Shown: positions 4,951 to 64,000 of the stretch, in pieces
Position numbering within the stretch: the stretch's first letter is position 1
How the letters are laid out: each line of letters opens with the position of its first letter
NCBI GenBank assembly: GCA_045629645.1
Contig: JAZQRR010000034.1
Coordinates: forward strand, 10,996-74,995
Length of the DNA: 64,000 nt
Direction: 5' to 3'
From: Candidatus Enterousia sp.
GTDB taxonomy: Bacteria; Pseudomonadota; Alphaproteobacteria; Rs-D84
Made by a program: the position numbers and the translations under genes
The notes under the pieces: generated by a model
Seen by the model: only the letters and a program-made list of their open reading frames with translations
The model's database searches: none
Told to the model about the DNA's origin: nothing

Positions 4951-4975
4951 TGTTTCCTTCCTTTTTTCGTTTTTC

Positions 4976-6662: not shown

Positions 6663-6801
6663 GACAATAATCCTCCCTAATTTTTTCATAAGTATATCAT
6701 AAAAACACATTAATTCCAAAACATAAAAAACATATATTGACATTTTTTTGCAAATTATGTTTAATTAATATTAACAAAAAAATTATTCAGGGAGTATCTT
6801 C

Positions 6802-25483: not shown

Positions 25484-27463
25484 ATGACAGAAAAAAATAT
25501 AAAGACATACGACGCATCCGACATCCAAGTTCTAGAAGGTTTAGAACCTGTTCGTTTACGTCCTGGGATGTACATTGGTGGTACCGACGAAAAGGCTTGG
25601 CACCACTTGCCAATTGAAATTATGGACAATTCTATTGACGAAGCCGTTGCTGGTTTTGCAAAAAAAATCACTGTCCATTTGATTGATTCTAAAACCATTG
25701 AAATTACAGACGACGGTCGTGGAATTCCCGTGGACGAACATCCAAAGTATCCCGGCAAATCCGCACTGGAAGTTATTTTAACAACACTGCACTCGGGCGG
25801 TAAGTTTAACAATAATGTTTATAAAACCAGTGGCGGTCTGCATGGTGTTGGTTCTGCGGTTGTGAACGCCCTGTCATCTGAAATGATTGTTAATATTTCT
25901 CGCGATGGGTATCAATGGCGGCAAACATTTTCTCGTGGTATTCCAACCAGTGAAATGCAACGTGGGGATGCAACAAAATCTCATGGCACCAAGATACGCT
26001 TTACCATTGACGATGAAATCTTTGGCGCGAACGCAACATTCAAGCCAATAAAAATTTATCGTATGGCACGCGCCAAGGCATTTTTGTCCAAAGGAATAAA
26101 AATAGACTGGCAATGCAATCCAGATTTATTGACAGAAGATATGAATATCCCTGCAACCACAACATTCCATTATCCAAACGGTGTTGCAGATTTCTTGGCA
26201 GAAAAGACCAATGAAAAACCACGTATTTTATCACGCATATTCAGTGGCAGTGTTGATTTTCCTGACGATTCTGGTCGCGTTGAATGGGCGTTAACATTTT
26301 TAACCGACGAAAACGGCGCAGCATCTGACGACGGCTTCTTTTCATCTTATTGCAACACGATTGCAACGATTGACGGTGGCACACACGAAACCGGTTTTAA
26401 ATCCGCTATAACCAAGGGTTTAAAAACATACGGTGAAAAAATTAACAACAAATCTGCTGCGACAATTATCGGCGATGACGTTTTTGATTCTGTTGCTGCG
26501 ATTGTATCTGTATTTTATAAAACACCACAATTCTTAGGTCAAACCAAAGAAAAATTATCTAATCCAGAGGTTGCACGTTTTACAGAAAACGCATTGCGCG
26601 ATCCATGGGAAATGTTCTTGGCGTCCGACCCAAAGACCGCAAACACATTGCTTGATTTTGTTATCAATTTGGCAAACGCACGTATAAAAACAAAACAAGT
26701 CAAAGATGTTGCACGCAAAACGCCAACTAAACGCATACGTATGCCCGCAAAATTAGCCGACTGTTCCAAGCATGGAATTGCTGGCACAGAATTATTTATT
26801 GTAGAGGGAGAATCTGCGGGCGGCACCGCCAAGCAGGCACGCGACCGTGCGACCCAGGCGATTATGCCCCTGCGCGGCAAGGTATTAAATGTAATATCAA
26901 ATTCCGACGAACGCTTTGGCGCGAACAAGGAATTGAACGATTTAATTGATATAATTGGTGCTGGAACGGCCAAGGACTGGAACGAAGATAAATTACGTTA
27001 TGAAAAAATCATCGTTATGACCGATGCCGACGTTGACGGCAGCCATATTGCATCATTATTAATGGCGTTTTTCTATCAATATATGCCCCAGTTAATTTAT
27101 GGCGGACACTTATATTTATCTTGTCCCCCATTGTATAAATTAACATGTGGCACAGAATCTATATACGTTGACACTGATGAAGAACTGGAAAATCTAAAAT
27201 CAACAAAATATAAAAACAAGAAAGTTGAAATTTCTCGATTCAAAGGTTTGGGCGAAATGATGCCAAATCAGTTAAAAGAAACAACCATGTCGCCAAAGAC
27301 ACGCCGACTGATACGTGTTGAATTACCACCACGCACCGAAGAAGGCGCCGAAGATACAGAAAAAACACGCACAATTGTGTCCGAATTAATGGGCAAAAAA
27401 CCAGAATTTCGCTTTAAATTTATAACCGAGCATGCTCAATTCGTCAAAGATTTATTCGTATAA
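25484..27463 (+). CDS. parE: Type IIA topoisomerase ATPase subunit, ParE-sized (659 aa; topoisomerase IV subunit B, or a short GyrB)
   Basis: GHKL ATPase (IEIMDNSIDEA, DDGRGIP), a TOPRIM domain (ELFIVEGESAGG; IVMTDADVDGSHI) and PLYKL. The ~800-aa GyrB insertion is absent. Confidence 0.65.
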   Translation: MTEKNIKTYDASDIQVLEGLEPVRLRPGMYIGGTDEKAWHHLPIEIMDNSIDEAVAGFAKKITVHLIDSKTIEITDDGRGIPVDEHPKYPGKSALEVILTTLHSGGKFNNNVYKTSGGLHGVGSAVVNALSSEMIVNISRDGYQWRQTFSRGIPTSEMQRGDATKSHGTKIRFTIDDEIFGANATFKPIKIYRMARAKAFLSKGIKIDWQCNPDLLTEDMNIPATTTFHYPNGVADFLAEKTNEKPRILSRIFSGSVDFPDDSGRVEWALTFLTDENGAASDDGFFSSYCNTIATIDGGTHETGFKSAITKGLKTYGEKINNKSAATIIGDDVFDSVAAIVSVFYKTPQFLGQTKEKLSNPEVARFTENALRDPWEMFLASDPKTANTLLDFVINLANARIKTKQVKDVARKTPTKRIRMPAKLADCSKHGIAGTELFIVEGESAGGTAKQARDRATQAIMPLRGKVLNVISNSDERFGANKELNDLIDIIGAGTAKDWNEDKLRYEKIIVMTDADVDGSHIASLLMAFFYQYMPQLIYGGHLYLSCPPLYKLTCGTESIYVDTDEELENLKSTKYKNKKVEISRFKGLGEMMPNQLKETTMSPKTRRLIRVELPPRTEEGAEDTEKTRTIVSELMGKKPEFRFKFITEHAQFVKDLFV

Positions 27464-28037: not shown

Positions 28038-30851
28038 TTATTCTTTTTTCACACACTTGCCATTGGTTAAATCATAACCATCAACACACTTGGTTATTTT
28101 ACAAGCCGACCAATCGCGCCCCGCCCAAGTTTGTGTCGCACTTGCCGCATTTTCTGGCATATCTGGACAAGTTCTGATTTCAGGGTCACATTTTTTTCCA
28201 TCTGTATTCTTTTCATACATATTATCACATGCAACAACCATACAATCAGTATAAGTTCCATCTGCTTTCAATGTCTGCTTTGCGCTTTTTGCATTAGTGA
28301 TAGCACACTCAACCTCTTCCTTTAAACACTGGTTATTAATATTCTTATAACCTGTTCTACATTGTGAAATCACACAATCTCCCCAATTACTGCCGTTCCA
28401 AGTCTTTACTCCTTGGTCACCGTTATTATCCAGGCACCCCCGTGTTTCCGGCACACATTTATTACCATCTAAATTGTAATGATCTTTACATGTTGTTATC
28501 ACACAGCTGCCCAACGTACCATTTTCTATGGTTGCATACGCTTCTGCAACACCAACCAGATCTCCTGAACAATCAACCTTGGTTCTTTCTTCACATTTAC
28601 CATCTTTCAAGATATAACCATCATTACATGCTGTTGCAACACAAACACCATTCGAATTCTTGTAGCCAGATTTTGCATTAGATGGCAATTCACCCAACTT
28701 GCATCTTTGTTCTGTTGAAATATCTGCAGACCAGTTACGGATATCTGCAACACCAGCATCCAACAAACATTGTTCACGCATAGACGCTGAATTACCAGAC
28801 GCATTCAACGCAATATTTGCTGCACCAGAACCTGTACCATTCAAAATTTCATTTAATGTTACAACATTACGGCATGTATTCTTGGTGTAATCTTGATTAT
28901 TCGAACAACTGTTGCTATCCGCCACATCTATAACTGCCTTGAATTGTGCCGTCGAAGGATTACAAATCATTTCTTCATAACAATGCGGAACATTTGCAAT
29001 CTGGGCACAGTATGTTTTGATACGTGCATCAGGCCAGTTTGGTTCGCTGTCTGCTGTACTTTCATAACAGTCATAAATTTCACTTAAACATTCGTTAAAG
29101 TTCGTACCAGCCTCAATCGCAGCAGTCAAAATTTCTTCTTCTTCTTCTACTGCAAATTCCAGACGTTTTTGTTGCAAGGCTTGTTGTGCTGCAACCTTTT
29201 GATACGCAATATTTTGTGCAGTCGCACGCAGTTGTTCACCATACAAATCGCAATCTGCATTGGCGTCCAACAAATACTTATTCATAATACTGCGACGTGC
29301 ATCCGCAACAGGACCACGCAGATTTGAATAAGGATCCCCAGATGTTGTTGTATAACCAAAACATGACGCACTGGCATTTATAGAACCTGTTGATGTTGAA
29401 CCACGTTCATTCAACGCAATTTCACCAGACGCATTAACATCAATTTTGGAATTATAATTGAACGGACAATTAGAAGACTGACCGTTTGCACACTTGCCAC
29501 CGAACGATGCTGGCGAACCACAAGATTCATAAATACCATTAAAGCAAGAATCCAAGACACGACCACAAACTTCGTTATGCGCATGCGCAAACAGTTGATA
29601 CCCCCATGTATTTGCCAATGTATCTTTGGATTCTTCTGTAACTGACAAAGAAGACCCCAGCCCAGCCAATCCATTAACAACACCAGAAACACCTTCGAAC
29701 GCACTTAACAAAGAATCGTCATTATCTGTCAGGATTGTGATTGTATTTTCTTTGGCCTTGGCCCATGCCTGCAAGTTCGCCAAAATATCAGAACCACTAC
29801 CATTTAAATTCTTGATATCAAAACCAAAATTGTTATTTGAACAGTATTCAGGTTGATTACAAGAAGAAACAACACTTCCATTATTAAATATACCATGCGA
29901 CGAACACCAATCTACCGCCTCTTGCGAAGAAACGCCATGTTCATTTGTAACCTCGCGCCAGGAAACACAGTTCATAACCTGTTCTGCTTCGGTCAACTGG
30001 AACGCATCAGAAACATCTTTACCCCTGTTTGCAATCAACAATGCCAATTCACCAGACGCCTTGATTAATTCTTCATTTGCTGTTTCCAACGCTGCTTCTG
30101 CTTCTGCAAACGCGGTGACACGACCAGCGCATGCACAACGACGCTGTGCCTGATTACGTGCAGTACAAATTTCGTCCATACACGCATAATAAGATTCCAA
30201 ACAATTATTAAACGCATCTGTTGAAATCAAACCGGTTGTTGAATCGATAATATTTGAATAATTCCCCGTATATAATTTATTTGTCAGATAAGAATAAGTT
30301 GTACCACCGGAACTCTTAGAACCACGAATCGCACTACCCTGCAAAGAAACACGTGCAGCATCTGAGTCAACCGCTGTACGTGCACGCACATTACGATTAT
30401 TTGCCGCAGTTGTTCTGTTTGTAACAACCGCACTGCGCGAAACTACATTTCTTTTATTTTCTGTTTGTGCACGGGATGCAGTTGCACGTGAATTTGTTGT
30501 ACGTGACGCAACCGCACGTGTTGCCGCAGCACGAGTTGCATTTGCACGTGCATTACTTGCACGGGCTGTTGCTGTACGGGCAGATATTGCTGGTGTTGCA
30601 ACCGTTGTTCTGGCGACATTAGCACGCGCAGTCGCACGATTACGTGGACTTTCACGCAATGCCGCGCCACGCGCATTACCAGCCGCAACCTGCTGTTGCA
30701 TTAAAACCATCGGGTCATTAATTGGCGCAATTGGATCTGCCAACACAGTACGCATTGACACAAATGTCGAACAAACCAAGAACGCCCCCAACAACAGACA
30801 CGCTGTTCCAATTGCATTCTTAACAGAACTTACGATTTTTTGACTTATCAT
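28038..30851 (-). CDS. Large secreted cysteine-rich modular protein (937 aa)
   Basis: The signal peptide is followed by an Arg/Ala/Thr-rich low-complexity repeat (TARASNARANATRAAATRAVASRTT...). Then come a coiled-coil segment and about five C-terminal ~50-aa Cys modules of the pattern W-G--W--C-I--C--GY-L----C. Confidence 0.6.
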   Translation of the reverse strand: MISQKIVSSVKNAIGTACLLLGAFLVCSTFVSMRTVLADPIAPINDPMVLMQQQVAAGNARGAALRESPRNRATARANVARTTVATPAISARTATARASNARANATRAAATRAVASRTTNSRATASRAQTENKRNVVSRSAVVTNRTTAANNRNVRARTAVDSDAARVSLQGSAIRGSKSSGGTTYSYLTNKLYTGNYSNIIDSTTGLISTDAFNNCLESYYACMDEICTARNQAQRRCACAGRVTAFAEAEAALETANEELIKASGELALLIANRGKDVSDAFQLTEAEQVMNCVSWREVTNEHGVSSQEAVDWCSSHGIFNNGSVVSSCNQPEYCSNNNFGFDIKNLNGSGSDILANLQAWAKAKENTITILTDNDDSLLSAFEGVSGVVNGLAGLGSSLSVTEESKDTLANTWGYQLFAHAHNEVCGRVLDSCFNGIYESCGSPASFGGKCANGQSSNCPFNYNSKIDVNASGEIALNERGSTSTGSINASASCFGYTTTSGDPYSNLRGPVADARRSIMNKYLLDANADCDLYGEQLRATAQNIAYQKVAAQQALQQKRLEFAVEEEEEILTAAIEAGTNFNECLSEIYDCYESTADSEPNWPDARIKTYCAQIANVPHCYEEMICNPSTAQFKAVIDVADSNSCSNNQDYTKNTCRNVVTLNEILNGTGSGAANIALNASGNSASMREQCLLDAGVADIRNWSADISTEQRCKLGELPSNAKSGYKNSNGVCVATACNDGYILKDGKCEERTKVDCSGDLVGVAEAYATIENGTLGSCVITTCKDHYNLDGNKCVPETRGCLDNNGDQGVKTWNGSNWGDCVISQCRTGYKNINNQCLKEEVECAITNAKSAKQTLKADGTYTDCMVVACDNMYEKNTDGKKCDPEIRTCPDMPENAASATQTWAGRDWSACKITKCVDGYDLTNGKCVKKE

Positions 30852-31021
30852 CGAACTCTCCCTGTGTTTCGGTCAACGCCCCAGAAACCCAACCTTTCAT
30901 TAATCCTTGCCATACAAAATGTATGTTTATCTCTGTAATTATATCAATTTTTTAAATATCTGTAAACAACAAAGTACACATTTTACACATAAAAAAACGC
31001 CCCATTATCGGGGCATTTTTA

Positions 31022-32293
31022 TTATTGAACACCTACACTAAATTCATCCCCCCAACCGGCGACAGACTGCCCACCGATTACACAATTAATATCTTCAAAA
31101 CCATCTTCTATCTGATGTTTTTTGATAACACTGCTGGTAATCAGACCACCTGCAGTTCCCAAAACAACCCCAGCGATGGAATCCGACGCCAAACGTGCAG
31201 TATTAAACTTACCTTCTTCGTCTTTCCAAACACTTACTTTAAATCCAGATTCAATATTCTTCAAAACGTTTTCAGCCGCCAAAATTGCCTTACGCGACGC
31301 CGATGTATCCACCGGCGTTGCTGCTTCAACAACAACTGTTACCTCATCGCTTTTTGTACACATAGCATTAACTAAACCTTGAACAGCTGCTCTCGTTTCA
31401 TTAAATTTTCCAACTGTCAAATCTGACTTTTCACACAACGCCTCAAACTTAGAAATTTCCACAAGAACATCCTGCGATGCCTTACATTGCACCTTCCAGG
31501 CACTAATCGTAACCCCAACACTGTCATCACATTGATACGATGCGTTCTCTTCACCCTTGACATTACAATAGCCCTGCAAACCATCATAAGAAAATTCTTG
31601 ATTTTGACCGACACAAACACATTGTGAACCGTCCCACTTTGCAACCGATAACGACAACGAACAACACGCCTTACCCTCTGCCGTTGTACGCGAATCTACG
31701 CAAGAAGTTTTATTTTCCCCTGGCTTTGGAGCTGGCATTGGAGCAGGCTTTGGAGCTGGCATTGGAGCTGGCTTTGGATCTGGCACAGGCTGTGTCTGCC
31801 CAGGTTTCTGACCATGGTCATAATAACAAAAAGCATCCTTAGAAGTAGACGTATAATACTGACTAGCCATATGAACCTTCGCCAACGAATTCGGAACATA
31901 AATATCATAATTACCATGTGTAGTAATTAACCGTTTACCATCAGTAGTACTACACTTGTTTAAACTAGTAGCGCCAACCGAGGCCCATGCATTTCCACCG
32001 CTGGTCGAACATCGATATATACCCACATCATCTTTTGTTTCATTATCCCACACATGAACACCTGTAATAACCGCAAAAGCACCTTCTTCACAAGAACCAT
32101 CTTGAAAGCCACCACAAATCAAAGCCAAACCATTGCTATCTTTGTAATCAGCCAGCGTAGGAAACAAATATTCATTAGAAGACTTCCACGAACTCCACCC
32201 AATATTTAACACTTTTGAACAATTATAGTTATCTGCCACTGCACCGGATACACAACCAAACAAAACCAATACAGACAATAAAATCTTCTTCAT
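31022..32293 (-). CDS. Secreted cysteine-rich protein with a Pro-rich (PAPKPAPM) linker repeat
   Basis: Signal peptide MKKILLSVLVLFGCVSGAVA. The DNA carries the 24-bp repeat ccaaagccagctccaatgccagct, encoding PKPAPMPAPKPAPMPAPKP. There are ~20 Cys residues. Confidence 0.55.
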   Translation of the reverse strand: MKKILLSVLVLFGCVSGAVADNYNCSKVLNIGWSSWKSSNEYLFPTLADYKDSNGLALICGGFQDGSCEEGAFAVITGVHVWDNETKDDVGIYRCSTSGGNAWASVGATSLNKCSTTDGKRLITTHGNYDIYVPNSLAKVHMASQYYTSTSKDAFCYYDHGQKPGQTQPVPDPKPAPMPAPKPAPMPAPKPGENKTSCVDSRTTAEGKACCSLSLSVAKWDGSQCVCVGQNQEFSYDGLQGYCNVKGEENASYQCDDSVGVTISAWKVQCKASQDVLVEISKFEALCEKSDLTVGKFNETRAAVQGLVNAMCTKSDEVTVVVEAATPVDTSASRKAILAAENVLKNIESGFKVSVWKDEEGKFNTARLASDSIAGVVLGTAGGLITSSVIKKHQIEDGFEDINCVIGGQSVAGWGDEFSVGVQ

Positions 32294-32381: not shown

Positions 32382-33662
32382 TTATTTATATTCACCAATC
32401 AACTGTTGAATCTGGGCGGACAAAACCAAATCTGACGCTTGTTGTTTTTCAATCTGTTTGATTGCATACAAAACTGTTGCATGATCACGACCACCAACAA
32501 AATTACCAATTTCTGTCAAAGACAAACCTGTAACATTCTTTAATACCACCATCATAATCTGACGCGCCAAAACCAATGAACGACTGCGACCATTACCACA
32601 TACTGCATCATAAGACACAGCCAACTTTTCACACATATCTTTAACCATCGCAGATGGTGTTTTTGTTTTCTGCAATGTATCTGCCAACAAACGCTGCGCA
32701 ACAGCCATATCAACCGCAGCACCCATCAAATCTGTATATGTTTTAATTTTTGTTGCAACACCTGCAATTAAATGACCATCATTTGCAATACGTGACGCAA
32801 TCGCATTCGCAACATCCATCGCAACACCTGCGCGCTGTAACATAACTGTTTTAACATGTGCATTTGGCGCACAAACATCTGCAACCAAACCAGACGCCAA
32901 CAAAGATTGTGCACGTCTGTCAAAACCTGTCATATTGTTTGGTGCCGCATTTGAAGTCAAAACAATATTCTTGCCTGCGTTACGCAAATCAACAACCAAT
33001 TGCAAGAATTCATCTGTTGAGGCTTTTTTACCAGACAAACTTTGAACATCATCCAAAATAAATGTATCGCAATTACGGCAAAAATCTTTGAACGCGAAAA
33101 TATTATGTTCTTTCAAGCTGCGTGTAAATTCAGAAACAAACTGTGCGCCACTCATCTTAACAACACGCCCCTGGGCCGCACCTGCGATACATTCTGTTAA
33201 CAATGTTTTACCGCAACCTGCCACACCATAAATAAACAGCGGAGAGAAAGGAACCTTACCCGCCGCCAATTTTTTGCACGCAGACAAAACAAACAAATTT
33301 TCATCACTAGCAACAAACGCATCAAACGCAATAGATGAATCTTGGGACGCAACAACTGGCGCATAAGCCTGTGCCTTGTTATCATTTGCAACTGCCGCAA
33401 CAGACTTAACCGCTGCACTGCGAACAACAACGCGCGCATCTAAACCAAATTCATGTGCAACAGACGCAATTACATTACCGTGAACACTGTTGATAAAATC
33501 TGCTGAAAATTGATTTTGCGCACCCAAAACCAATGTATTATCTGTAACATCAAATGTTAATGGTGCAATCCAAGAAGAAAAACTTGCAGAATCTATTTTT
33601 GCGGCAATGGCCCCCTTGATAACGTCCAAGTTAGTCATTTGAATTTTTGCCACTGTCTGCAT
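32382..33662 (-). CDS. dnaA: Chromosomal replication initiator DnaA
   Basis: AAA+ Walker A GVAGCGKTLL and the C-terminal DNA-binding helix (TEIGNFVGGRDHATVLYAIKQIE). An RBS AAGGAG sits 9 nt upstream of the ATG. Confidence 0.9.
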   Translation of the reverse strand: MQTVAKIQMTNLDVIKGAIAAKIDSASFSSWIAPLTFDVTDNTLVLGAQNQFSADFINSVHGNVIASVAHEFGLDARVVVRSAAVKSVAAVANDNKAQAYAPVVASQDSSIAFDAFVASDENLFVLSACKKLAAGKVPFSPLFIYGVAGCGKTLLTECIAGAAQGRVVKMSGAQFVSEFTRSLKEHNIFAFKDFCRNCDTFILDDVQSLSGKKASTDEFLQLVVDLRNAGKNIVLTSNAAPNNMTGFDRRAQSLLASGLVADVCAPNAHVKTVMLQRAGVAMDVANAIASRIANDGHLIAGVATKIKTYTDLMGAAVDMAVAQRLLADTLQKTKTPSAMVKDMCEKLAVSYDAVCGNGRSRSLVLARQIMMVVLKNVTGLSLTEIGNFVGGRDHATVLYAIKQIEKQQASDLVLSAQIQQLIGEYK

Positions 33663-35238: not shown

Positions 35239-36096
35239 TTAACTTGCTAAATCAAACAAACTATCATACTTAGTGCATATTGATTCTATTGCAGAATCAT
35301 CCGCATCATCCCATATATTTTTTTCACATTCTGCCTTTAACTTGCGTAAATTCTTGATATAATTATCGTATTCAGATGCATTTTCCTTGGCCAAGACAGA
35401 CAACTGTGAACGCAACAATTGATCACCCTGCAAAGACTTTTGACCTTCGACCTTGCCACCAATCAATTTATTTCCAAACAATTCCATTGCACCAACACCA
35501 ATACCTGCACCACCAACAACGCCACCAACAGTTCCCCACACACGCGCCGTCTTTTTAGCATCCAATATTCTCTGACGCAAAGTTTCTTCGTTCGCCCATG
35601 TTCCGCATGTTATACTGCGTCCCATTTCAAAATACTTACTTGGAATATCTGAAACATCAATTTTCGAATCGTTTGATTTTATATCAACCTTAACAAAACA
35701 AACATTATTTTCAGGTTCTTCCACGTCTTCTATCATCGTAGAATAATTATTCAAATTACTGTAACGTGACGCCCACACAAAAGTATTTCCCATACCAACA
35801 TTATTAGACATACATGCGTTACGTTCTTTTTCGCGCATATCTTTTTTAACCGCAGGAACCGCCTGTTCTGGTGTAATCGCCATACTACCAACTGCGATTG
35901 CCTGTTGCTGTGCCGAAACAGGGTTTGCCGTCATCGCCGCGGCCGCCAGTTGATTTTTCGATGCAACCACAGCACGAGCATCCGTATTAGTATAAGAATT
36001 TACCGACGCACGACCACGTGGATTATTCGGCGTCACCGCATCAGCAGCCCCCCCCAGAAACAAAATAGAAAAAAACACACTTATAAAATATTTCAT
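35239..36096 (-). CDS. Hypothetical secreted protein
   Basis: Signal peptide MKYFISVFFSILFLGGAADA. 285 aa with no recognisable motif. Confidence 0.45.
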   Translation of the reverse strand: MKYFISVFFSILFLGGAADAVTPNNPRGRASVNSYTNTDARAVVASKNQLAAAAMTANPVSAQQQAIAVGSMAITPEQAVPAVKKDMREKERNACMSNNVGMGNTFVWASRYSNLNNYSTMIEDVEEPENNVCFVKVDIKSNDSKIDVSDIPSKYFEMGRSITCGTWANEETLRQRILDAKKTARVWGTVGGVVGGAGIGVGAMELFGNKLIGGKVEGQKSLQGDQLLRSQLSVLAKENASEYDNYIKNLRKLKAECEKNIWDDADDSAIESICTKYDSLFDLAS

Positions 36097-36197
36097 ATCC
36101 TCTTCCCTTATTTGCCAATTCATTATACCACAAAAAGGCAAAAAAATAAAGCATTAATATAAATAAAAAAAAAGGGGCACACAGCCCCCTTGATATA

Positions 36198-40703: not shown

Positions 40704-42032
40704 ATGGCACAACTTTCAGAAAATCTTATACGTGAAATTTCTAGAAAACGTAACGAGCCAGACTGGTTATTACAATGGCGTGTGGGCGCATATCGCGCAT
40801 GGACAAAAATGTCTGAACCACATTGGGCTGAAATAGAATACACACCAATTGATTATAACGACTTGGATTATTATAACCAGGCACCACCAGTAGATAACTC
40901 TGATTTAAACGCTATTTACGATAAGATGGGACTGCCCGCTGGTGAAAAAAAAGCATTAATGGGAATGGCAACAGATACCGTCATCGACAGCCGCTCTGTA
41001 CACACTTCTTACACTGCCGAACTGCAACGCCTGGGCATAATATTTATGCCAATGTCTGACGCTGTACAACAACACCCAGAACTTGTAAAAACATATCTGG
41101 GCAGCATCGTGCCACAAACAGACAATTTTTTTGCAGCCCTGAACGCCGCAGTGTTTTCAGATGGCACATTTGTATATATACCAAAAAACACAAAATGCCC
41201 CATTGATTTGGCCAGTTTTTTCAGAATTGAAACTGCAAAAATCGGGCAATTTGAACGCACGTTAATAATCGCAGACACAGGCGCAGAATTATCTTATATG
41301 GAAGGTTGCAGCGCCCCACGCAGAACACGCAACCAACTGCACAGTGGTGTCGTTGAAATCATCGCCCACGAAAACGCCACAATCAAATACGCAACTGTTC
41401 AAAACTGGTTTGCCGGCGACTTTGACGGCAAAAAAAACACTGGTGGAATTTTTAATTTTGTAACCAAGCGTGGACAATGCGATAACAATGCAAAAATTTT
41501 ATGGACACAGATGGAGATAGGTTCTGCCCTGACATGGAAATACCCATCTACAATTTTACGCGGAAACAATGCGTACAGCGACTTTTTTTCACTGTCCATA
41601 ACACGTGGTGGTCAAATGGCAGACACCGGCACAAAAATGATTCACATTGGAAACAACACAACATCTAATATTGTGTCATACGGTGTCGCAACTGACTCAT
41701 CACATCAAACATTTCGCAGTATGGTTTCTTTTTCTGGCAACGACTGTACAAACGTTTCAAAATGCGACAGCAGAATCATTGGAAATAACGCAACAGCAAA
41801 TACCCTGCCACGCATCATTCACAATGGCAAAAACAATCAACAATCACACGAAGCCACAACAGGGACAATTGATCCAAACGCTTTATTTTACTTAAATTCC
41901 GCGGGACTAGACACCGACACGGCAACATCTTTGATTATTGGTGCCACCGCCACACCTGTACTGTCTCGGCTACCAATGGAATTCTTAGTAGAATCTAAAC
42001 AACTGATACAAATGGCATTATCAAAGGATTAA
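40704..42032 (+). CDS. sufB: Fe-S cluster assembly protein SufB
   Basis: ELSYMEGCSAP...GVVEIIAHENATIKY...KILWTQMEIGSALTWKYPS, the SufB/SufD-family signature. Confidence 0.8.
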   Translation: MAQLSENLIREISRKRNEPDWLLQWRVGAYRAWTKMSEPHWAEIEYTPIDYNDLDYYNQAPPVDNSDLNAIYDKMGLPAGEKKALMGMATDTVIDSRSVHTSYTAELQRLGIIFMPMSDAVQQHPELVKTYLGSIVPQTDNFFAALNAAVFSDGTFVYIPKNTKCPIDLASFFRIETAKIGQFERTLIIADTGAELSYMEGCSAPRRTRNQLHSGVVEIIAHENATIKYATVQNWFAGDFDGKKNTGGIFNFVTKRGQCDNNAKILWTQMEIGSALTWKYPSTILRGNNAYSDFFSLSITRGGQMADTGTKMIHIGNNTTSNIVSYGVATDSSHQTFRSMVSFSGNDCTNVSKCDSRIIGNNATANTLPRIIHNGKNNQQSHEATTGTIDPNALFYLNSAGLDTDTATSLIIGATATPVLSRLPMEFLVESKQLIQMALSKD

Positions 42033-42035
42033 AAA

Positions 42036-42713
42036 ATGCTAAAAATACAAAACTTATCTGTATCTTTCCAAGACAAAGAATTACTATCAGATATAAATCT
42101 GAACATTTCATCTGGCGCACGCGTGTTATTAACAGGCCATAACGGCAGTGGAAAATCTACACTGGTCGGCACCATTGCAGGTAACGAACAATACACTATC
42201 ACATCAGGGAAAATAATATTTAACGGGCAAGATATAACGAATGAAAACGCAACAACACGCGCACTGCTGGGTATTTTCTTGGGCGCACAAAACGTACCAG
42301 AAATCCCAGGTCTAAGTATTATCAGCCTGTTAAAACACTCTTGCAATGCCCACCACCACTTTCAAACCGGCAAAGATTTACCAATGGGCGAATTATTAGA
42401 AAAGATAGACAATGCACGTACCACATTAAATATTCCACGCGAATGGTTGAACCGCAGCATAAACGTTGGTTTTTCTGGTGGCGAACGCAAAAAAATTATG
42501 TTGTTACGTCTATTAATGGCACAACCAAAACTTGCCATTTTGGACGAACCAGACTCTGGCGCAGATACAGAAACACAAGCTTTGATTGCAAACACAATTA
42601 AATCTATGCCAAATACAACGTTTATTATTATCAGTCATCAACAAGCCTTTACCGAATTAATACAACCTACACACACAACAGCTTTATCAAATGGAAAAAA
42701 TATGATAAAATAA
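42036..42713 (+). CDS. sufC: Fe-S cluster assembly ATPase SufC
   Basis: Walker A GHNGSGKSTL, ABC signature FSGGERKK, Walker B ILDEPDSG. Confidence 0.85.
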   Translation: MLKIQNLSVSFQDKELLSDINLNISSGARVLLTGHNGSGKSTLVGTIAGNEQYTITSGKIIFNGQDITNENATTRALLGIFLGAQNVPEIPGLSIISLLKHSCNAHHHFQTGKDLPMGELLEKIDNARTTLNIPREWLNRSINVGFSGGERKKIMLLRLLMAQPKLAILDEPDSGADTETQALIANTIKSMPNTTFIIISHQQAFTELIQPTHTTALSNGKNMIK

Positions 42714-45223: not shown

Positions 45224-45520
45224 ATGGCATTTAGCAAGCAACAATTACAAAAATTTGCAGATTTAATTCGCATTGAAATCAGCCCAGAAAAACTGGAAGA
45301 AATGAACATCGATTCTGTTGTCGAATGGCTGGACAAGGTACAACAAATTGACACAACGGGCGTTAATCCAATGTTAAGTCCATCTGAACACACCCTGCCC
45401 CAACGCGAAGATGTTGTCACTGACGGCAACATTCGTGATTTGATTCTGGCAAACACACCTGACAACGCCGGCACATCGCGCGGTTATTTCGCAGTACCCA
45501 AGGTTATGGATGGGGACTAA
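45224..45520 (+). CDS. gatC: Glutamyl/aspartyl-tRNA amidotransferase subunit C
   Basis: 98 aa; ...LDKVQQIDTTGVNPM... is typical GatC. Confidence 0.8.
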   Translation: MAFSKQQLQKFADLIRIEISPEKLEEMNIDSVVEWLDKVQQIDTTGVNPMLSPSEHTLPQREDVVTDGNIRDLILANTPDNAGTSRGYFAVPKVMDGD

Positions 45521-45953
45521 ACAAATGACACCTGACAAGAACATTCCTGTAAATTTTGTTCAATACGAACAGTACGAACATTACCCAAACCATGTTGCAC
45601 ATCTGGGGTATATTGGTTCGGATGAATTAAAAGAACTGATGAGTGTTTTTAACACCAATAAAATTGCACAAAACGCATGCATTTGTTCATTGAACTTGTC
45701 TTATTCAGAACAAACACGTTTTGGTCGCACGCCTGGCGGCAACAAACACTATTGCGCCCTAGATATCGACACAATGTTCTATTTCGACCAATATCCACAA
45801 TGCGGCAAACAAAATTGCCCACTTAACGAAGAAGATAAAATAAAACGTTGCGCACGCAATTTGAAAAACGGCAAATGTCTGGATGAATTTATACGCAACA
45901 CCCTGGGCGTGGCGTTATTCCCCGAGCATTATAAAAAAGACAAACAAAAGTAA
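45510..45953 (+). CDS. Hypothetical Cys-rich protein inserted between gatC and gatA
   Basis: 147 aa with several CxxC-like spacings (CICSLN, CGKQNCP, RCARNLKNGKC). No recognisable family. Confidence 0.4.
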   Translation: MGTKQMTPDKNIPVNFVQYEQYEHYPNHVAHLGYIGSDELKELMSVFNTNKIAQNACICSLNLSYSEQTRFGRTPGGNKHYCALDIDTMFYFDQYPQCGKQNCPLNEEDKIKRCARNLKNGKCLDEFIRNTLGVALFPEHYKKDKQK

Positions 45954-45964
45954 AAGAAGAAAAG

Positions 45965-47431
45965 ATGATAAACTTAACATTGACCGAAGCATTACAAAAA
46001 CTAAACAACCGTGAAATTTCCGCAGTGGAATTAACAAGGTGCTATTTGGACCGTATTGAAAAATATGGTGCAGATTTAAATTGCTATATTACAACAACAC
46101 CTGAACGCGCAATGGCAGACGCCGCCGCATCAGATGCACGTCGTGCCGCTGGCGAAGCGCACTTTTTGGATGGCGCACCAATCGCAATGAAAGATATGTT
46201 CGCAACACGTGGCATTCGCACAACTGCGGCATCACGCATGCTGGAAAATTTTGTTCCAGAATACGAATCGACTGTTTCGCAAAAATGTATTGATGCAGGC
46301 ACTGTATTATTGGGCAAAGCCAATTTGGACGAGTTTGCAATGGGAACTTTCAGCAAAACCAGTTTCTTTGGCGCCCCTGTAAATCCATGGCAAATGGAAA
46401 AACGTTTAACCGCAGGCGGCTCGTCTGGTGGTTCTTCATCGGCGGTCGCATCTGGTTTGGCAATCGCTGCCACAGGTACAGATACGGGTGGTTCAATACG
46501 TTTTCCTGCGGCCATCACTGGATTGGTTGGTATGAAACCAACATATGGTCTGTGCTCTCGTTGGGGATGTGTTGCATACGCATCCAGTCTGGACACCCCA
46601 GGTCCAATTGCACGCACATCAGATGACGCCGCGTTAATGTTATCTGCCATGGCTGGACACGACCCAAAAGATTCAACCAGTGCGACAAATGGTTTTGTTT
46701 GCACGGGCCCACTGGAACCAATCTTGGGCGACGGTAAAAAATTACGCGTTGGTATAATCAAAGAATTTATGGACGTCGAAGTATCCCAAGATATGAAAGA
46801 TTTGTTTAACGCCCGCCTGAACGATTTAAAATCAATGGGTGCAGAAATTATCGAAGTATCTATTCCAAACATTTTGGATGCATTGGCGGCATATTATATC
46901 ATCGCCCCAGCCGAAGCATCATCAAACTTGGCACGCTATGACGGTATGCGTTACGGATTACGCGTCGAAGGTAATGATTTAATAGACACTTACAAAAAAA
47001 CACGTGCAGCAGGCTTTGGTGACGAAGTACAACGTCGTATGATTATCGGCACAGCAGTATTGTCCAGCGAATCGTACGAAGTATATTTTATGCAGGCAGC
47101 ACGTGTACGCCGCATGTTGGCAGACAGTTTTAACAGCGCATTTGAACAGTGCGATTTAATACTGTGTCCATCCAGTGCCGGCACTGCAATGCCACTGGAT
47201 TCTGATTTATCGCCACTGGAATATTACGCATTAGACTTATTCACAGTTGCAATGAACTTGGTTGGCGTTCCTGCATGCAGTGTACCTGCAGGCTTGGCAC
47301 AAAACGGTCTGCCATTGGGTCTGCAAGTAATCGGACGCCGTTTTGATGATATGCGCGTTTTACAGTTGGCAAAACACATCGAAATTGCATCAAATATCGA
47401 TAATCGCCCAACAACAATTATGGGAAAGTAA
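45965..47431 (+). CDS. gatA: Glutamyl/aspartyl-tRNA amidotransferase subunit A
   Basis: Amidase signature GGSSGGSSSAVA...TDTGGSIRFPAA. Confidence 0.9.
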   Translation: MINLTLTEALQKLNNREISAVELTRCYLDRIEKYGADLNCYITTTPERAMADAAASDARRAAGEAHFLDGAPIAMKDMFATRGIRTTAASRMLENFVPEYESTVSQKCIDAGTVLLGKANLDEFAMGTFSKTSFFGAPVNPWQMEKRLTAGGSSGGSSSAVASGLAIAATGTDTGGSIRFPAAITGLVGMKPTYGLCSRWGCVAYASSLDTPGPIARTSDDAALMLSAMAGHDPKDSTSATNGFVCTGPLEPILGDGKKLRVGIIKEFMDVEVSQDMKDLFNARLNDLKSMGAEIIEVSIPNILDALAAYYIIAPAEASSNLARYDGMRYGLRVEGNDLIDTYKKTRAAGFGDEVQRRMIIGTAVLSSESYEVYFMQAARVRRMLADSFNSAFEQCDLILCPSSAGTAMPLDSDLSPLEYYALDLFTVAMNLVGVPACSVPAGLAQNGLPLGLQVIGRRFDDMRVLQLAKHIEIASNIDNRPTTIMGK

Positions 47432-49154: not shown

Positions 49155-49173
49155 AAAGAAAAGGAGCAAACGC

Positions 49174-49308
49174 ATGAAGAAACACAATAAAACACACAGT
49201 ATCAATGTTGTTGACATCGTTGAAAACAACGTTATCACAGGGGTAAAATATGGCACACGTGAAATAACACTTTATGCAACGCAAAAAACATATCAAAAAA
49301 TACGTTAA
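49174..49308 (+). CDS. Small ORF (44 aa) with a strong RBS
   Basis: AAGGAG lies 7 nt upstream of ATG 49174. The product is MKKHNKTHSINVVDIVENNVITGVKYGTREITLYATQKTYQKIR. The ORF is below the threshold of the ORF track. Confidence 0.25.
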   Translation: MKKHNKTHSINVVDIVENNVITGVKYGTREITLYATQKTYQKIR

Positions 49309-49590
49309 ATAAATACGGGATATGTGTCTATGTCTAAAAAGTATTATATATATACACCAAACCTAGAATCGTTATTCGTCGATGTGCAAGTAATAATACG
49401 CGAAATACCCAATCAAGAGGCAAAAAACAAAATACAACTACAACAAGAAAGACATCGTCATAACTATCACATGCGCGCATTCAATACTGTGCAACAAAAC
49501 ATGTTACACAACATAACGAACCAACGAACAAAAAAGAAATAAGAAAAAGTACTCATGAAAAAATTCTTTATCCAAACCTTTGGTTGACAA

Positions 49591-50862
49591 ATGAATGTTT
49601 ACGACAGTTGGCGAATTGCTGCACTGTTAGAACATCGTGGTATGCAACGTACAGACAGCATACCAGATGCGGACATAATCATATTAAACACATGCGCTGT
49701 TCGTGCCAAGGCAACGGATAAAGTCTTTTCTGCACTGGGGCGCATCAGACGTGCAAAGAAACCATCAGCCTTGTTCGGCATTGTTGGATGCGTTGCACGC
49801 GAATCTGGATCTGACGCTTTTCGCAGAATACCTGATTTAAATTTTGTTCTGGGACCGCAAAGTTATCATAAATTACCAGACATACTGGACAATCCTGATG
49901 CAAAATTATTAAACATCGATTTAGGCGGCTTAGAAAAATTTGACGCCCTGCCCCAGATGGAAAAATCACCACGTGTCGCATACATTCCAATCCAAGAAGG
50001 ATGCAATCATTGCTGTACATACTGCATTGTGCCATACACACGCGGACGCGAATTATCACGCGACTTTGATGCATGTATGCGCGACACAATTCATGCTGCA
50101 AAAACAGGTGCAATTGAAATTTGCTTCTTGGGTCAAAACGTAAACGGATATAAATACACAGACAAAAATGGCAAAACATACCGCCTGTCTGACCTAATCC
50201 GAGAAACAGCAAAAATCCCAGAAATTATGCGCATACGCTTTACTTCCAGTTATCCAACCGAAATGACGGACGACCTGATTGATATGTTTGCCACAGAACC
50301 AAAATTATTACCATTTTTAAATATGCCAATCCAAAGTGGTTCACAAAATGTATTAACAAAAATGAATCGTCCATACACACTGGAATTATACACAGACATT
50401 ATTAGAAAATTACGAATCGCGCGTCCAGACATACAAATATCATCTGACTTCATCGTGGGCTTCCCAGGTGAAACCGATTCGGATTTTGAAGACACTATGC
50501 GTATTGCAGAACATGTAAAATATATAAATTCTTATTCGTTTAAATATTCTCCGCGTCCACACACCGCGGCGGCACTGATGCCTGATCAAATTCCAGAAAG
50601 CATCAAGTCTCAACGTCTGGCAAAACTGGACACGTATTTAAACGAAGTTCAACGTGAATTCAACCTCTGCTGCGTAGATACTGTTTTAACCTGCCTGCTA
50701 GAAGGTCCAGATAAAACAGGAACAAAATTGATATATCGTACACCATATATGCAACAATGCGTTGTAAACGCCCCAGAAAATACAGCGGCACCAGAATTAG
50801 CACAGATTAAAATTACTGCTGCTAACAAGGCATCTTTACGCGGGGAACTGGTACAAGATTAA
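49591..50862 (+). CDS. miaB: tRNA-2-methylthio-N6-dimethylallyladenosine synthase MiaB (5' end disrupted by an in-frame TGA)
   Basis: Radical-SAM CxxxCxxC (CNHCCTYC) and MTTase/TRAM domains. An ATG at 49555 opens MKKFFIQTFG-TGA-QMNVYDS, in the same frame as the ORF. Confidence 0.8.
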   Translation: MNVYDSWRIAALLEHRGMQRTDSIPDADIIILNTCAVRAKATDKVFSALGRIRRAKKPSALFGIVGCVARESGSDAFRRIPDLNFVLGPQSYHKLPDILDNPDAKLLNIDLGGLEKFDALPQMEKSPRVAYIPIQEGCNHCCTYCIVPYTRGRELSRDFDACMRDTIHAAKTGAIEICFLGQNVNGYKYTDKNGKTYRLSDLIRETAKIPEIMRIRFTSSYPTEMTDDLIDMFATEPKLLPFLNMPIQSGSQNVLTKMNRPYTLELYTDIIRKLRIARPDIQISSDFIVGFPGETDSDFEDTMRIAEHVKYINSYSFKYSPRPHTAAALMPDQIPESIKSQRLAKLDTYLNEVQREFNLCCVDTVLTCLLEGPDKTGTKLIYRTPYMQQCVVNAPENTAAPELAQIKITAANKASLRGELVQD

Positions 50863-52403
50863 AACATCAGTCTTAAATTTATCGACAACGCATAAGAAAT
50901 CGTATCTGATATCGATACCGCGGACAATGTTATATCTCCGCCAAGTGCATCTATATCCGACCATGCACCAACATGTGCAGATAACATAACATCCGAAAAA
51001 TCATTAACACTGATACGCGCATCATAATTATAACGCACGCCCAAAAATTCAAATGTGTAACCAAAATCCGTTCCCAGACGCATATACATATTAAAATCAG
51101 AAACAGTTGATAATTTATAATAATCAGCTACCACACCAAGATAAGGCGTCAAATAAAACGAATCGGACAAATCAAACTTATATCCAAAATCAGTCAACAC
51201 ATATCCAGATAATACACTGGGTTCAGAAATAATTTTATTATTATAAAAGACCATATTAACATCAAAATCTGACTTGGCAGCCATAATATCAGTACGAACA
51301 AACGCATTATCATAAAATTTATATTTCAGATTTAAATCAAGTCCATACATCAACCCGCCAAAATCATCCAAATCAGACCCATATTCAATTTTTCCAAAAC
51401 GTGCACCAACACCGACAAGAAAATCATCTGATATATTATTGACGTACTTTAAATTCAATCCGTACATAAAAAAATCTTCTGACATAACACCAAACAAATC
51501 AGCACCCGAACCCCCGACCAAAAAATCATATTTCAACATATCAAACGCATACAATGTTTGTACAGGCTGCAACAAAACATCTGAATTAAATCGTACAGAA
51601 CGAGACATAATATTATTTAATTCGTTCATATCCATCGCATTATCCAGATATAAAAATAATTTTTCACCACCACCATAGATACGCAAATTATTCAAGAAAT
51701 CGCCACAATCTGCACCGTCAAAGACAACCGCATAATCCGTTTCACGCACACGTTTTATTGACAAGCGTCCATTATCTATCTGTCCTGCAACAGAAAACAT
51801 CGGATCAGAATTATTTTCTTCAAACCTTACCGACCAACCGCCTGAAACATTATCCAGCAAAACATCATTTTGAAAATCTGTGGCATCATCAATCAGAAAA
51901 ATCACATTATCCCCAATATCGACTAACACAGACCTGTTATCCGGTACAGAATCAATATTTATCTTTGTGTTTTCAATAAAAACACGTTTGGCATCACCGG
52001 ACACACTAATCAAATCAGACAAAGTTAAAACGTCATCACTATCGACCAAAACAGTATAAGGTTCTGTTGTTCCAATATCATTTAAATCTTGTTGACCAAA
52101 GACAACCTGATACAGATTAACATCTTGGCCCAAAATAAAATTTGAATCTATAACACCTGAATTTTGCACATAAACTTCACATCTGTCACACACATGAATA
52201 TTTGTTCTTATCAAACCACTATTCTGCACGAACATAGACTGGGCCAGATATAAATCTGTTGGTGCGACAGTAATATCCTTTTCAACAAAAAAATCATTAT
52301 AAAATGTTTTCTGACTGCCCCAAATATCATTACTAACAACTGATGCGTCCACAGACATTGTTATAAATAAGCACAAAACAAAAGCAAGCAACCTGTTCAA
52401 CAT
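50859..52403 (-). CDS. Autotransporter-like outer-membrane beta-barrel protein
   Basis: Signal peptide. The C-terminal ~270 aa is alternating aromatic/hydrophobic beta-strand sequence ending ...SINLRLMF (terminal Phe). Confidence 0.5.
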   Translation of the reverse strand: MLNRLLAFVLCLFITMSVDASVVSNDIWGSQKTFYNDFFVEKDITVAPTDLYLAQSMFVQNSGLIRTNIHVCDRCEVYVQNSGVIDSNFILGQDVNLYQVVFGQQDLNDIGTTEPYTVLVDSDDVLTLSDLISVSGDAKRVFIENTKINIDSVPDNRSVLVDIGDNVIFLIDDATDFQNDVLLDNVSGGWSVRFEENNSDPMFSVAGQIDNGRLSIKRVRETDYAVVFDGADCGDFLNNLRIYGGGEKLFLYLDNAMDMNELNNIMSRSVRFNSDVLLQPVQTLYAFDMLKYDFLVGGSGADLFGVMSEDFFMYGLNLKYVNNISDDFLVGVGARFGKIEYGSDLDDFGGLMYGLDLNLKYKFYDNAFVRTDIMAAKSDFDVNMVFYNNKIISEPSVLSGYVLTDFGYKFDLSDSFYLTPYLGVVADYYKLSTVSDFNMYMRLGTDFGYTFEFLGVRYNYDARISVNDFSDVMLSAHVGAWSDIDALGGDITLSAVSISDTISYALSINLRLMF

Positions 52404-55913: not shown

Positions 55914-56621
55914 TCAATCGCGACGCATAAATAAAATACTGATTTCAAACAACGCCCACATTGGCAACGCTAACAGTATTTGCGAAACAACATCTGGCGG
56001 CGTTAAAACAGCCGCAACAACCACAATTAAAACAACCGCGTATCTGCGCATTTTTACAACGCGAGAACGTGCCAACACACCGATTCGATTTAACAAAACC
56101 AAAATCAAAGGCATCTGAAAAGCAACGCCAAAAACCTGTAACAACCCCAACGCAAAACTCAAATAATCGCGTGCAACTGGCAACAATGTACTGGGCACAG
56201 GTGTTGACATATTTAATTCTATAAAAAATTTAAATACAGTCGGAAACAAGAAATAAAAGGCAAACCCTGCCCCCAACACAAATAATACCGGCGACAAAAA
56301 TAAAATCGGCCAAATAAAACCGCGCTCATTCTTCTTTAATCCTGGTTCAACAAACGCCCACACGTGCCACAACAGCACAGGCATAACAAATACCAGCGCG
56401 AACAGCGCAGACAAAGACAATCTTATCATCAATCCATCTGTTAAACCTGTATATAACAACATTCCATCGCCCCACACCTGCAGCAACGGCAAAGTCAGTC
56501 CCACCTGCATATACGGCGCCACATACCAACCACAAACAAACAACACCAAAAATATCAGTGCACACCACAATATACGACGACGTAATTCAGAAAAATGCTG
56601 TAACAAAGTCATATTTTTCAT
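55914..56621 (-). CDS. tatC: Twin-arginine translocase subunit TatC
   Basis: 235 aa with six TMs and the N-terminal LQHFSELRRRIL TatC motif. Confidence 0.85.
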   Translation of the reverse strand: MKNMTLLQHFSELRRRILWCALIFLVLFVCGWYVAPYMQVGLTLPLLQVWGDGMLLYTGLTDGLMIRLSLSALFALVFVMPVLLWHVWAFVEPGLKKNERGFIWPILFLSPVLFVLGAGFAFYFLFPTVFKFFIELNMSTPVPSTLLPVARDYLSFALGLLQVFGVAFQMPLILVLLNRIGVLARSRVVKMRRYAVVLIVVVAAVLTPPDVVSQILLALPMWALFEISILFMRRD

Positions 56622-62247: not shown

Positions 62248-62610
62248 TCATAAATTCTTGAAAAAACGAATCATAGAATTAACACCATTTAAACGTCCTG
62301 CCCCCAGATTTAAATTTAATGATGCAAATTCAGATTCCATATCAATTTGTTTTATTTCATCTGGACTTTTTCCATCTACCATTGCGATAAAAACGGCAAC
62401 TATTCCACGCACCAGCGCAGAATCCGCCCTGCCAAAGAAATTATTTCCATAACGACAAATTTCAACAAAAGAAGAACATCCCATAATTTGTGTACACTGT
62501 GCACTTTCTGGTATATCTGCCAAACGCGTTCCTAAATCCATTAAAAATTCCAATCGCATCACAGCATCAGGAACAGACAACAAAGTATCTTTTATATTTT
62601 CATATTGCAT
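62248..62610 (-). CDS. sufE: SufE-like sulfur acceptor protein
   Basis: The conserved GCSSFV active-site Cys region and the SufE fold pattern. Confidence 0.65.
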   Translation of the reverse strand: MQYENIKDTLLSVPDAVMRLEFLMDLGTRLADIPESAQCTQIMGCSSFVEICRYGNNFFGRADSALVRGIVAVFIAMVDGKSPDEIKQIDMESEFASLNLNLGAGRLNGVNSMIRFFKNL

Positions 62611-62612
62611 TG

Positions 62613-62930
62613 TTACCAGCCCTCGTTCGTTAAATCCAGTTCCAAACGCGCAGCATCAGACATACGCGATAAATTCCATGGTGGATCCCAAACCAAATCA
62701 ACACGAACTGTCGCATCATCGCCTGCCACTTGTTGTGCTGCATCATGTACTTGGGTTAATAATTCTTCCATCATAGGACAAGTCGGACTGGTAAAAGTCA
62801 TCTTTATCACAACATCCTTGTCTGAAATCAAGATATCGTAAATCAACCCCATATCCCAAATATTAACAGGTATTTCTGGGTCGTATATTTTTTTTAGCGC
62901 ATTAATAATATCTTCTTTTTGAACCATCAT
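62613..62930 (-). CDS. sufT: DUF59/MIP18-family Fe-S assembly protein (SufT-like)
   Basis: IYDPEIPVNIWDMGLIY...TSPTCP, the DUF59 motif. Confidence 0.7.
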   Translation of the reverse strand: MMVQKEDIINALKKIYDPEIPVNIWDMGLIYDILISDKDVVIKMTFTSPTCPMMEELLTQVHDAAQQVAGDDATVRVDLVWDPPWNLSRMSDAARLELDLTNEGW

Positions 62931-64000
62931 TTTAAAATATCTTTGATGTACGATATCACAGTTTTAACTTCTTGCAAGCTATTATAACCACCAACAGAAA
63001 TACGAATCGAACCTGCGATATTCAAGCGCTGATGAATCCAAGACGCACACATATTACCAACACGCACACACACATCACGCGCCCCCAACAACGCCCCAAA
63101 ATCCAACGGATGAAAACCATCAACAACAAAACTTAACATTACCGATTCGCGCGACGAGATTATTTTTATCTGTTCAACACTTGATAATTCATCATACATA
63201 TATTTTATCAAACCATTATCAGGTCTATTTTGTTTCAAATTTTCAATCGCCGGCACCAACCCTGCAATCTGTGTTAACGGCAAAGTCCCCGCCTCGAAAA
63301 CATCTGGCGCGGCATTAAAGAAAACTTCATCTCCTATAACTTTATTCACCATTCCGCCACCAACAAATACCGGTTTATACACATCTGGATTCTTAATATA
63401 CATTATTCCCAATCCAGTATCTGCACCAATTTTATGCGCAGAAAAACACATAAAATCACAATTCCATTTTTCAACATCAATATCTTCATGCACGACAAAT
63501 TGCGCGGCATCCACCACCGTAATAACGTTTGGATTTTTATCCTGCGCACATTGCACAATACGCGCAACATCCTGTACACGCCCCAACACATTAGACATTG
63601 CAGTAATAACAAGAACATCTGCCACAGGGATATTGTTATAATCAATATCCATATTATCATCTAAATCACAAACTGTTATCTTCGCGCCTGTTTTTACAAA
63701 TGGCAATCTGGCACTATGATGATCCAAATCAGAAACACAAACAACACTATTTTCATCCAGATTTAACATCATTGCAATCATATTCATCGCAGCGGTTGTT
63801 CCAGATGTAAAAACAATATTCTTTTCATTTGTTCCAACAAAGTCCGCAACGCAACGTCGTGTTGTTTGCAGCATATTATCAACCCCTGTGGCACGCGCAC
63901 AAATTCCGCGTCCAGCGTTGGCATATTTATTCTGTAAAAAATCCATCTGAGCGCTTATTACCCCGTCTGATTTTTGATAACTTGCAGCCGCATCTAAGTA
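62927..64000 (-). CDS. sufS: Cysteine desulfurase SufS (class V aminotransferase); N-terminus lies beyond the window end
   Basis: The ORF is open to position 64000. Upstream in-frame translation gives YLDAAASYQKSDGVI. PLP-binding region HKIGADTGLGIMY and active-site Cys region RVGNMCAS. Confidence 0.8.
   Translation of the reverse strand, partial: YLDAAASYQKSDGVISAQMDFLQNKYANAGRGICARATGVDNMLQTTRRCVADFVGTNEKNIVFTSGTTAAMNMIAMMLNLDENSVVCVSDLDHHSARLPFVKTGAKITVCDLDDNMDIDYNNIPVADVLVITAMSNVLGRVQDVARIVQCAQDKNPNVITVVDAAQFVVHEDIDVEKWNCDFMCFSAHKIGADTGLGIMYIKNPDVYKPVFVGGGMVNKVIGDEVFFNAAPDVFEAGTLPLTQIAGLVPAIENLKQNRPDNGLIKYMYDELSSVEQIKIISSRESVMLSFVVDGFHPLDFGALLGARDVCVRVGNMCASWIHQRLNIAGSIRISVGGYNSLQEVKTVISYIKDILK

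Follow-up and report, generated by a model that had tools for sequence, protein, structure and literature searches.

The 64,000-nucleotide (nt) stretch of Candidatus Enterousia DNA analysed here (contig JAZQRR010000034.1, hereafter the window) carries a miaB gene, encoding the tRNA i6A37 methylthiotransferase, that is interrupted at codon 11 by an in-frame TGA. The ancestral codon 11 encoded cysteine, TGA is a working stop in this genome, and the rest of the gene is undecayed. We consider it probable that the TGA is a recent, strain-private single-base substitution (TGC or TGT to TGA), that is, an ordinary nonsense allele of miaB. From position 49555, the plus strand reads ATG AAA AAA TTC TTT ATC CAA ACC TTT GGT TGA CAA ATG AAT GTT TAC GAC AGT, and the gene is composed of the following features, with the sources of each assignment in brackets.

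49555-50862, plus strand: miaB, 435 codons, with a stop at codon 11 (TIGR01574, Pfam, PDB, and the closely related strain L001)
49555-49584, plus strand: the first 10 codons, MKKFFIQTFG, now a stub open reading frame (ORF) (DNA identical in the intact genes of the related genomes L001, L113 and L114)
49585-49587, plus strand: in-frame TGA in place of the first auxiliary-cluster Cys codon (codon 11)
49591-50862, plus strand: 423-codon ORF from Met13, without Cys11, the product reported by the gene caller (protein P0004)
49693-49695, plus strand: Cys47 codon TGC, second auxiliary-cluster ligand, intact (sequence)
49789-49791, plus strand: Cys79 codon TGC, third auxiliary-cluster ligand, intact (sequence)
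50002-50025, plus strand: radical-SAM CxxxCxxC motif (C150, C154, C157), intact (sequence, Pfam)

The 435-aa product with a restored Cys11 scored 445.1 bits against the NCBIfam MiaB equivalog TIGR01574 (cutoff 355.3), profile positions 1-437 aligning with residues 3-433. Pfam assigned UPF0004 to residues 3-100 and Radical_SAM to residues 144-316 of the same Cys-restored protein. Since the UPF0004 match begins at residue 3, the 10 codons before the TGA are part of the ancestral gene. The TRAM domain fell below the Pfam threshold (E <= 0.001), and the alignments with TIGR01574 and with the closest PDB match, MiaB 7mjz (E = 5.8e-85), both reach residue 433. In 7mjz and 7mjv, the residue aligned with codon 11 is the Cys of YGCQMN. 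All methylthiotransferases possess an N-terminal UPF0004 domain in which CysX35-36CysX32-33Cys binds a second [4Fe-4S] cluster (PMC5352715). The arrangement here, C11-X35-C47-X31-C79, is near this published motif, with C11 being a stop in this assembly; the three-Cys feature is thus missing from the window allele and present in the ancestral gene, as in L001. Like the MiaB proteins of TIGR01574 and 7mjv/7mjz, the gene is full-length and collinear, with UPF0004 and radical-SAM domains, the CxxxCxxC motif and the second and third auxiliary Cys; unlike them, its first auxiliary-cluster Cys codon is a stop. An earlier reading made from the letters alone (the sequence-only reading) had placed the start at ATG 49555, read MKKFFIQTFG-TGA-QMNVYDS with the TGA at 49585-49587, and proposed that the stop replaces the cluster-ligating Cys. 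The sequence and the alignments confirm each of these points.

The position of the stop needs no special explanation. Among 180 single-base routes to a stop in miaB, one lies at codon 11 and six lie at the six cluster-ligand Cys codons, so that the chance of a stop falling on one of these Cys is about 3%, a mild coincidence. A TGA at this particular codon is also easily noticed, because MiaB reads G-C-Q-M-N there, an ATG follows two codons on, and the ORF still looks intact.

Comparison with relatives identified Cys as the ancestral residue. A protein search returned three full-length 435-aa MiaB proteins of 99-100% identity (P0001, P0002 and P0003), all reading ...FGCQMN.... The 423-aa P0004, deposited at NCBI from one 92.2-kb contig, is identical to the truncated ORF of the window and was the single protein of this truncated form, on one contig, in a collection of 15 billion sequences. 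The miaB of L001 (ENA ERZ28436111, a 130-kb contig) differs from that of the window at 7 of 1,308 bases (99.5% nt identity). Codons 11-12 are TGC CAG in L001 and in L113 (GCA_036309105.1), TGT CAA in L114 (ENA ERZ28436075) and TGA CAA in the window. Within the species, codon 11 therefore already varies at its third position (C/T), with A in the window alone, and the neighbouring CAA is common to the window and L114. We further scanned one genome per GTDB species with the degenerate pattern KKFFIQTFG-TGN-QMNVYD, allowing any TGN, and obtained 111 loci. In these 111 species-representative genomes together with L001, codon 11 was TGT in 79 and TGC in 33, and in none was it TGA. A strict species-level DNA pattern had no match in the metagenomes of the Joint Genome Institute. 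Hence no relative carries the TGA, and the Cys codon found in three conspecifics and 111 species representatives agrees with the proposal of the sequence-only reading that the TGA is an inactivating mutation or an error.

The surrounding genes of L001 provided a measure of how far the two strains differ. Of the 24 L001 genes, 23 have a counterpart in the window (the 24th is an RNA_pol_A_CTD gene), and apart from miaB none of these contains a stop. Codon-by-codon comparison of 20 genes (6,066 codons) gave 86 synonymous, 31 nonsynonymous and 1 nonsense difference, with no frameshift in any of the 20 and no disabling difference in the other 19; the base changes comprised 91 transitions and 32 transversions. 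Single-base differences amounted to 107 in 14.9 kb. The comparison indicates that the assembly is clean and that true strain differences are common (about 0.7%). Within miaB, the other differences from L001 were 5 synonymous and 1 nonsynonymous. With so few other changes, the gene must have been under purifying selection until essentially now, and the stop is either very recent or not real.

Several points weigh against a true nonsense allele. The assembled sequence alone cannot tell such an allele from a consensus error, and the allele is present in one assembly only. C-to-A is rare among the differences from L001 (3 of 123), and oxidative damage typically produces such changes as sequencing artefacts. 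Selection would, moreover, be expected to act against a nonsense allele in a gene that 114 relatives keep intact. The competing explanation is a consensus, base-calling or assembly error, in which case codon 11 would be TGC or TGT in the organism itself, and miaB would be intact. Confinement to a single assembly favours it, as do the facts that the stop is the sole disabling change among 118 codon differences from L001, that transversions to A, of which this change is one, are seldom found among real differences, and that miaB shows no other sign of relaxed selection. On the other side, the assembly is otherwise clean, with 22 other orthologous L001 genes free of stops and the 19 compared free of frameshifts; the real differences from the nearest strain exceed any plausible error rate; and codon 11 already varies at its third position in the species, next to a CAA that recurs in L114. 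We regard an error as possible but the less likely of the two, and rank the true allele above it because real differences from L001 are frequent and the assembly is otherwise undisrupted. Strain-private nonsense alleles, young pseudogenes and consensus errors in metagenome-assembled genomes (MAGs) all share the pattern seen here, a private single-base change without further decay among intact neighbours, and we found no feature in which the window departs from it.

If the nonsense allele is real, ribosomes starting at ATG 49555 would terminate after 10 codons, and some may restart at ATG 49591, 3 nt beyond the stop, giving a MiaB without residues 1-12, Cys11 included. No Shine-Dalgarno-like motif precedes ATG 49591, while about half of the window genes have one; termination-reinitiation would therefore be needed for the 423-aa form to be expressed. 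A MiaB starting at Met13 would be expected to fail to hold the sulfur-carrying auxiliary [4Fe-4S] cluster. The tRNAs reading UNN codons would then keep i6A37, with formation of ms2i6A37 lost or strongly reduced. Loss of the MiaB modification is tolerated in E. coli and Salmonella.

The remaining explanations hold that the UGA is translated, and for one of them the following structure is relevant.

49603-49628, plus strand: hairpin of 10 bp with one bulge and the loop GAAUU, incidental and not a selenocysteine insertion sequence (SECIS) (minimum free energy -8.7 kcal/mol)

Genome-wide reassignment of UGA to a sense codon might be thought of because the genome is small and AT-rich (39% GC in the window). 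The order Rs-D84, to which the Candidatus Enterousia lineage belongs, has reduced genomes, mostly <1 Mb and most of 0.75-1.0 Mb (PMC12306168), and UGA-to-Trp reassignment in reduced genomes of Bacillota, Pseudomonadota, Verrucomicrobiota and Actinomycetota has been reported (PMC13462651). The window resembles those genomes in being small and AT-rich with an in-frame UGA, but differs in that UGA is a functioning stop and the affected residue is Cys, not Trp. When genes were picked greedily under the standard bacterial code, 68 ORFs accounted for 92.4% of the window, with TAA as the stop of 52, TGA of 12 and TAG of 4. Several of the TGA stops lie in ATGA stop/start overlaps (8056-8059, 20272-20275, 56618-56621 and 62927-62930). 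Since TGA ends 12 of the 68 genes, such overlaps included, it is a working terminator here. Trp is encoded by TGG 197 times, and miaB has the sole in-frame TGA among the long ORFs. Stop and Trp usage thus refute reassignment for the window, as the sequence-only reading had anticipated, and we consider it next to impossible. Functional or leaky read-through, by which a near-cognate tRNA (Trp or Cys) would decode UGA-C and keep some full-length MiaB, gains some plausibility from the C that follows the stop, UGA-C being the weakest termination context measured in E. coli, and from the undecayed downstream gene. However, the stop occurs in no relative, so nothing suggests programming; no conserved structure lies downstream; Trp at a cluster-ligand position would not restore function; and a very recent mutation or an error would leave the gene just as undecayed. 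We judge read-through very unlikely, and its programmed form, raised earlier from the letters, found no support in the comparison.

Decoding of the UGA as selenocysteine (Sec) by means of the downstream hairpin would give an auxiliary cluster with a selenolate ligand. In its favour, the UGA aligns with Cys in homologues, the hairpin lies 15 nt downstream with G first in its loop and is more stable than the equivalent regions at 97% of the window Cys codons, and a marine clade described below appears to use the same miaB arrangement. The distance and the first-loop G resemble loose criteria of the kind applied in searches for bacterial SECIS elements. An equally stable downstream region occurs at 7 of the 258 Cys codons in window genes (the top 2-3%), and four of these seven also have G first in the loop. 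The hairpin is thus somewhat unusual, yet it is no evidence for Sec. It is base-for-base identical in L001, which has TGC, and for the 66 nt that begin with the TGA the predicted fold is not significantly more stable than in shuffled sequences (z = -0.29). The downstream fold proposed as a check by the sequence-only reading did turn up a hairpin, but one that is not TGA-specific. As a lineage-conserved RNA the hairpin was rejected as well: across 113 lineage sequences, 69.6% of cells were paired against 68.5% after shuffling, and most of them disrupt four of the ten pairs. TGA is found in 0 of 114 Cys-codon relatives, the three conspecifics included. With R1, a covariance model of the marine element, the window scored 11.5 bits (E = 0.57), the match covering just 49585-49611 (about 27 nt from the TGA), and an Rfam search of 49300-49900 (E <= 10) gave solely a chance small-RNA match on the opposite strand. 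A tRNA scan of the 64-kb window found two tRNA genes, Phe and Lys, and no tRNA-Sec; no sel genes appeared among the window genes examined, a set short of every ORF. A four-gene system kept for one strain-private codon in a reduced genome would also be implausible. Like E. coli fdhF, whose SECIS lies within the ORF, the window has a UGA at the Cys of homologues and a hairpin at a compatible distance; unlike in fdhF, the UGA is not conserved, and the hairpin is neither UGA-specific nor conserved and lacks the GCAGGU apical motif. Sec at codon 11 is highly improbable. Scarcely more credible is the broader idea that the UGA is translated, as Sec via the fortuitous hairpin or as Cys or Trp by a near-cognate tRNA, with the strain at the first step of a Cys-to-Sec conversion like the one that appears fixed in the marine Verrucomicrobiales clade. 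Of the three options that the sequence-only reading had left unranked, mutation or error therefore stands, and Sec and programmed read-through do not.

The marine clade emerged from a scan of a metagenome collection for T-[FY]-G-TGA-Q-M-N-x-x-D, which returned 104 contigs. About 95 of the 104 belong to one clade (loci L115-L221, e.g. L122:6840-8270, L194:3302-4732 and L221:10001-11395) reading M/V-PKVFIKTYG-TGA-QMNERDSEQVA..., with an intact frame of 447-483 codons after the TGA, and their sources are named as Akkermansiaceae, Verrucomicrobiales or Verrucomicrobia MAGs. NCBIfam identifies the full-length product as MiaB (465.8 bits). All of the best 120 database matches (120 of 120) are 464 aa long, that is, annotated from Met13. 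For one such 464-aa protein the collection has index entries in 47 blocks, and we inspected 23 contigs bearing it; the recurrence across contigs excludes error as the source of the marine TGA. Under the standard code the marine contigs are 82-95% coding, with TGA as the commonest stop (76 of 205), so the recoding in this clade is site-specific; global UGA reassignment was ruled out there by the same stop usage. Codon-position entropy over 62 distinct marine sequences was as follows.

10 codons before the marine TGA: mean entropy 0.14 / 0.05 / 0.98 at codon positions 1/2/3
20 codons after the marine TGA: mean entropy 0.13 / 0.14 / 0.88 at codon positions 1/2/3
Non-coding DNA upstream of marine miaB: mean entropy 1.83 over all positions

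The 10 codons before the marine TGA show coding periodicity. At 18 nt after the TGA lies a hairpin, UCYGAGC-AGGUU-GCYCRGA, in which 93.7% of cells are paired; the stem-loop sequence GAGCAGGUUGCUC designates this marine miaB hairpin. One of its pairs covaries (CG 21, UA 14, UG 13, CA 6). The third positions of Glu and Gln codons are invariant inside the hairpin, and other Glu and Gln codons vary. Four close relatives with the Cys form (TGC; L222-L225) use GAA, CAA, GTC or GCG there and cannot form the hairpin. The apical GCAGGU is common to the marine element and the E. coli fdhF SECIS, whose sequence was verified against 5,419 E. coli genomes. Judged from the sequences, these features are the classical signature of a bacterial selenoprotein gene, and the clade is a strong candidate for a hitherto undescribed Sec-containing MiaB. 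No sel genes were present in the ±10 kb flanks of marine miaB on three contigs, and a tRNA scan found no tRNA-Sec at 60 marine loci. A full-text literature search returned no report of a Sec-containing MiaB, which is not proof of novelty. A 2026 review of the prokaryotic selenoproteome (PMC13188914) and the Global Ocean Sampling survey (PMC2398784) likewise mention neither MiaB nor methylthiotransferases. Marine miaB shows how a truly recoded gene looks, and the window bears none of its marks.

The same scan yielded some further loci. A separate lineage, L205 (5230-5274, minus strand), reads EKTFYLETFG-TGA-QMNAHDSEK... with an intact frame of 425 codons; its hairpin, UCCGA-AAAGGUUA-UCGGA, shares the GGUU loop motif of the marine element, and model R1 gives it 23.2 bits. 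These features suggest that L205 has a putative Sec-miaB of independent origin. L123 and L187, each a single contig, also have a TGA and match more weakly; theirs may be a mutation or an error, as in the window. On the minus strand of L218, beside an intact gene, lies the degenerate 5' end of a second miaB with a TGA, SIFKRIKTYG-TGA-QMNGRDSEP..., followed by the next stop after 49 codons. The two copies are about 780 nt apart (7067 and 7850 of the reverse-complemented locus), and the second looks like a decayed partial duplication.

In the window, miaB is flanked by the following features.

49155-49554, plus strand: spacer between gatB and miaB with two small ORFs, no family match
50859-52403, minus strand: convergent autotransporter-like gene whose stop overlaps that of miaB (Pfam Autotransporter, 27.3 bits), intact and 99.4% identical to L001

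The two small ORFs of the spacer (49174-49308 and 49324-49542) are called genes in L001 and are about 90% identical there, with no Pfam family. Divergence from L001 is roughly tenfold higher in the 400-nt spacer than in the flanking genes; over the 260 nt upstream of miaB it comes to roughly 4-5%, compared with 0.5% inside miaB. The spacer (49155-49554) is probably non-coding. Another difference between the strains lies between gatC and gatA, where L001 (5495-6426) has an extra 162-aa gene with RNA_pol_A_CTD that is absent from the window (45510-45965). About 27 nt align on either side of this indel, and the small window ORF at 45510-45953 is just 74% identical to its L001 counterpart, versus about 99% for its neighbours.

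Elsewhere in the window, replication genes include dnaN (16969-18087, minus strand), gyrB (25484-27463, plus strand) and dnaA (32382-33662, minus strand). GC skew is negative along the window save for one 2-kb bin (+0.034, 46-48 kb); as its sign never changes lastingly, no replication origin is visible by skew near dnaA. Long ORFs without a family match lie within 520-6743, 28038-32293 and 35239-36141. Among them, the 937-aa ORF at 28038-30851 and the 423-aa ORF at 31022-32293 had no match in the Pfam scan, and the eight-ORF run at 520-6743 had none in NCBIfam, one library with its thresholds being scanned in each case. These family-less ORFs encode lineage-specific proteins of unknown function. 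Intact Fe-S assembly genes are found at 40704-42713 and 62248-63946, encoding SufB/D-like proteins, a SufC-like ABC ATPase and a class-V aminotransferase (cysteine desulfurase-like) with two small genes downstream of it. They are consistent with a lineage that keeps Fe-S enzymes such as MiaB.

For the window itself the finding carries little weight beyond annotation: a single codon is broken or miscalled in a tRNA-modification gene that an uncultured gut bacterium can dispense with, and the 423-aa 'MiaB' in the annotation should be marked as disrupted, not as intact. The wider meaning concerns the family. Where a TGA falls at the G-C-Q-M-N of MiaB, the ATG two codons later leads gene callers to report, silently, an N-truncated protein that looks intact. 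In the marine clade this blind spot conceals an apparently real selenoprotein family; if this is true, the sulfur-donating [4Fe-4S] cluster of a radical-SAM methylthiotransferase would have selenocysteine as a ligand.

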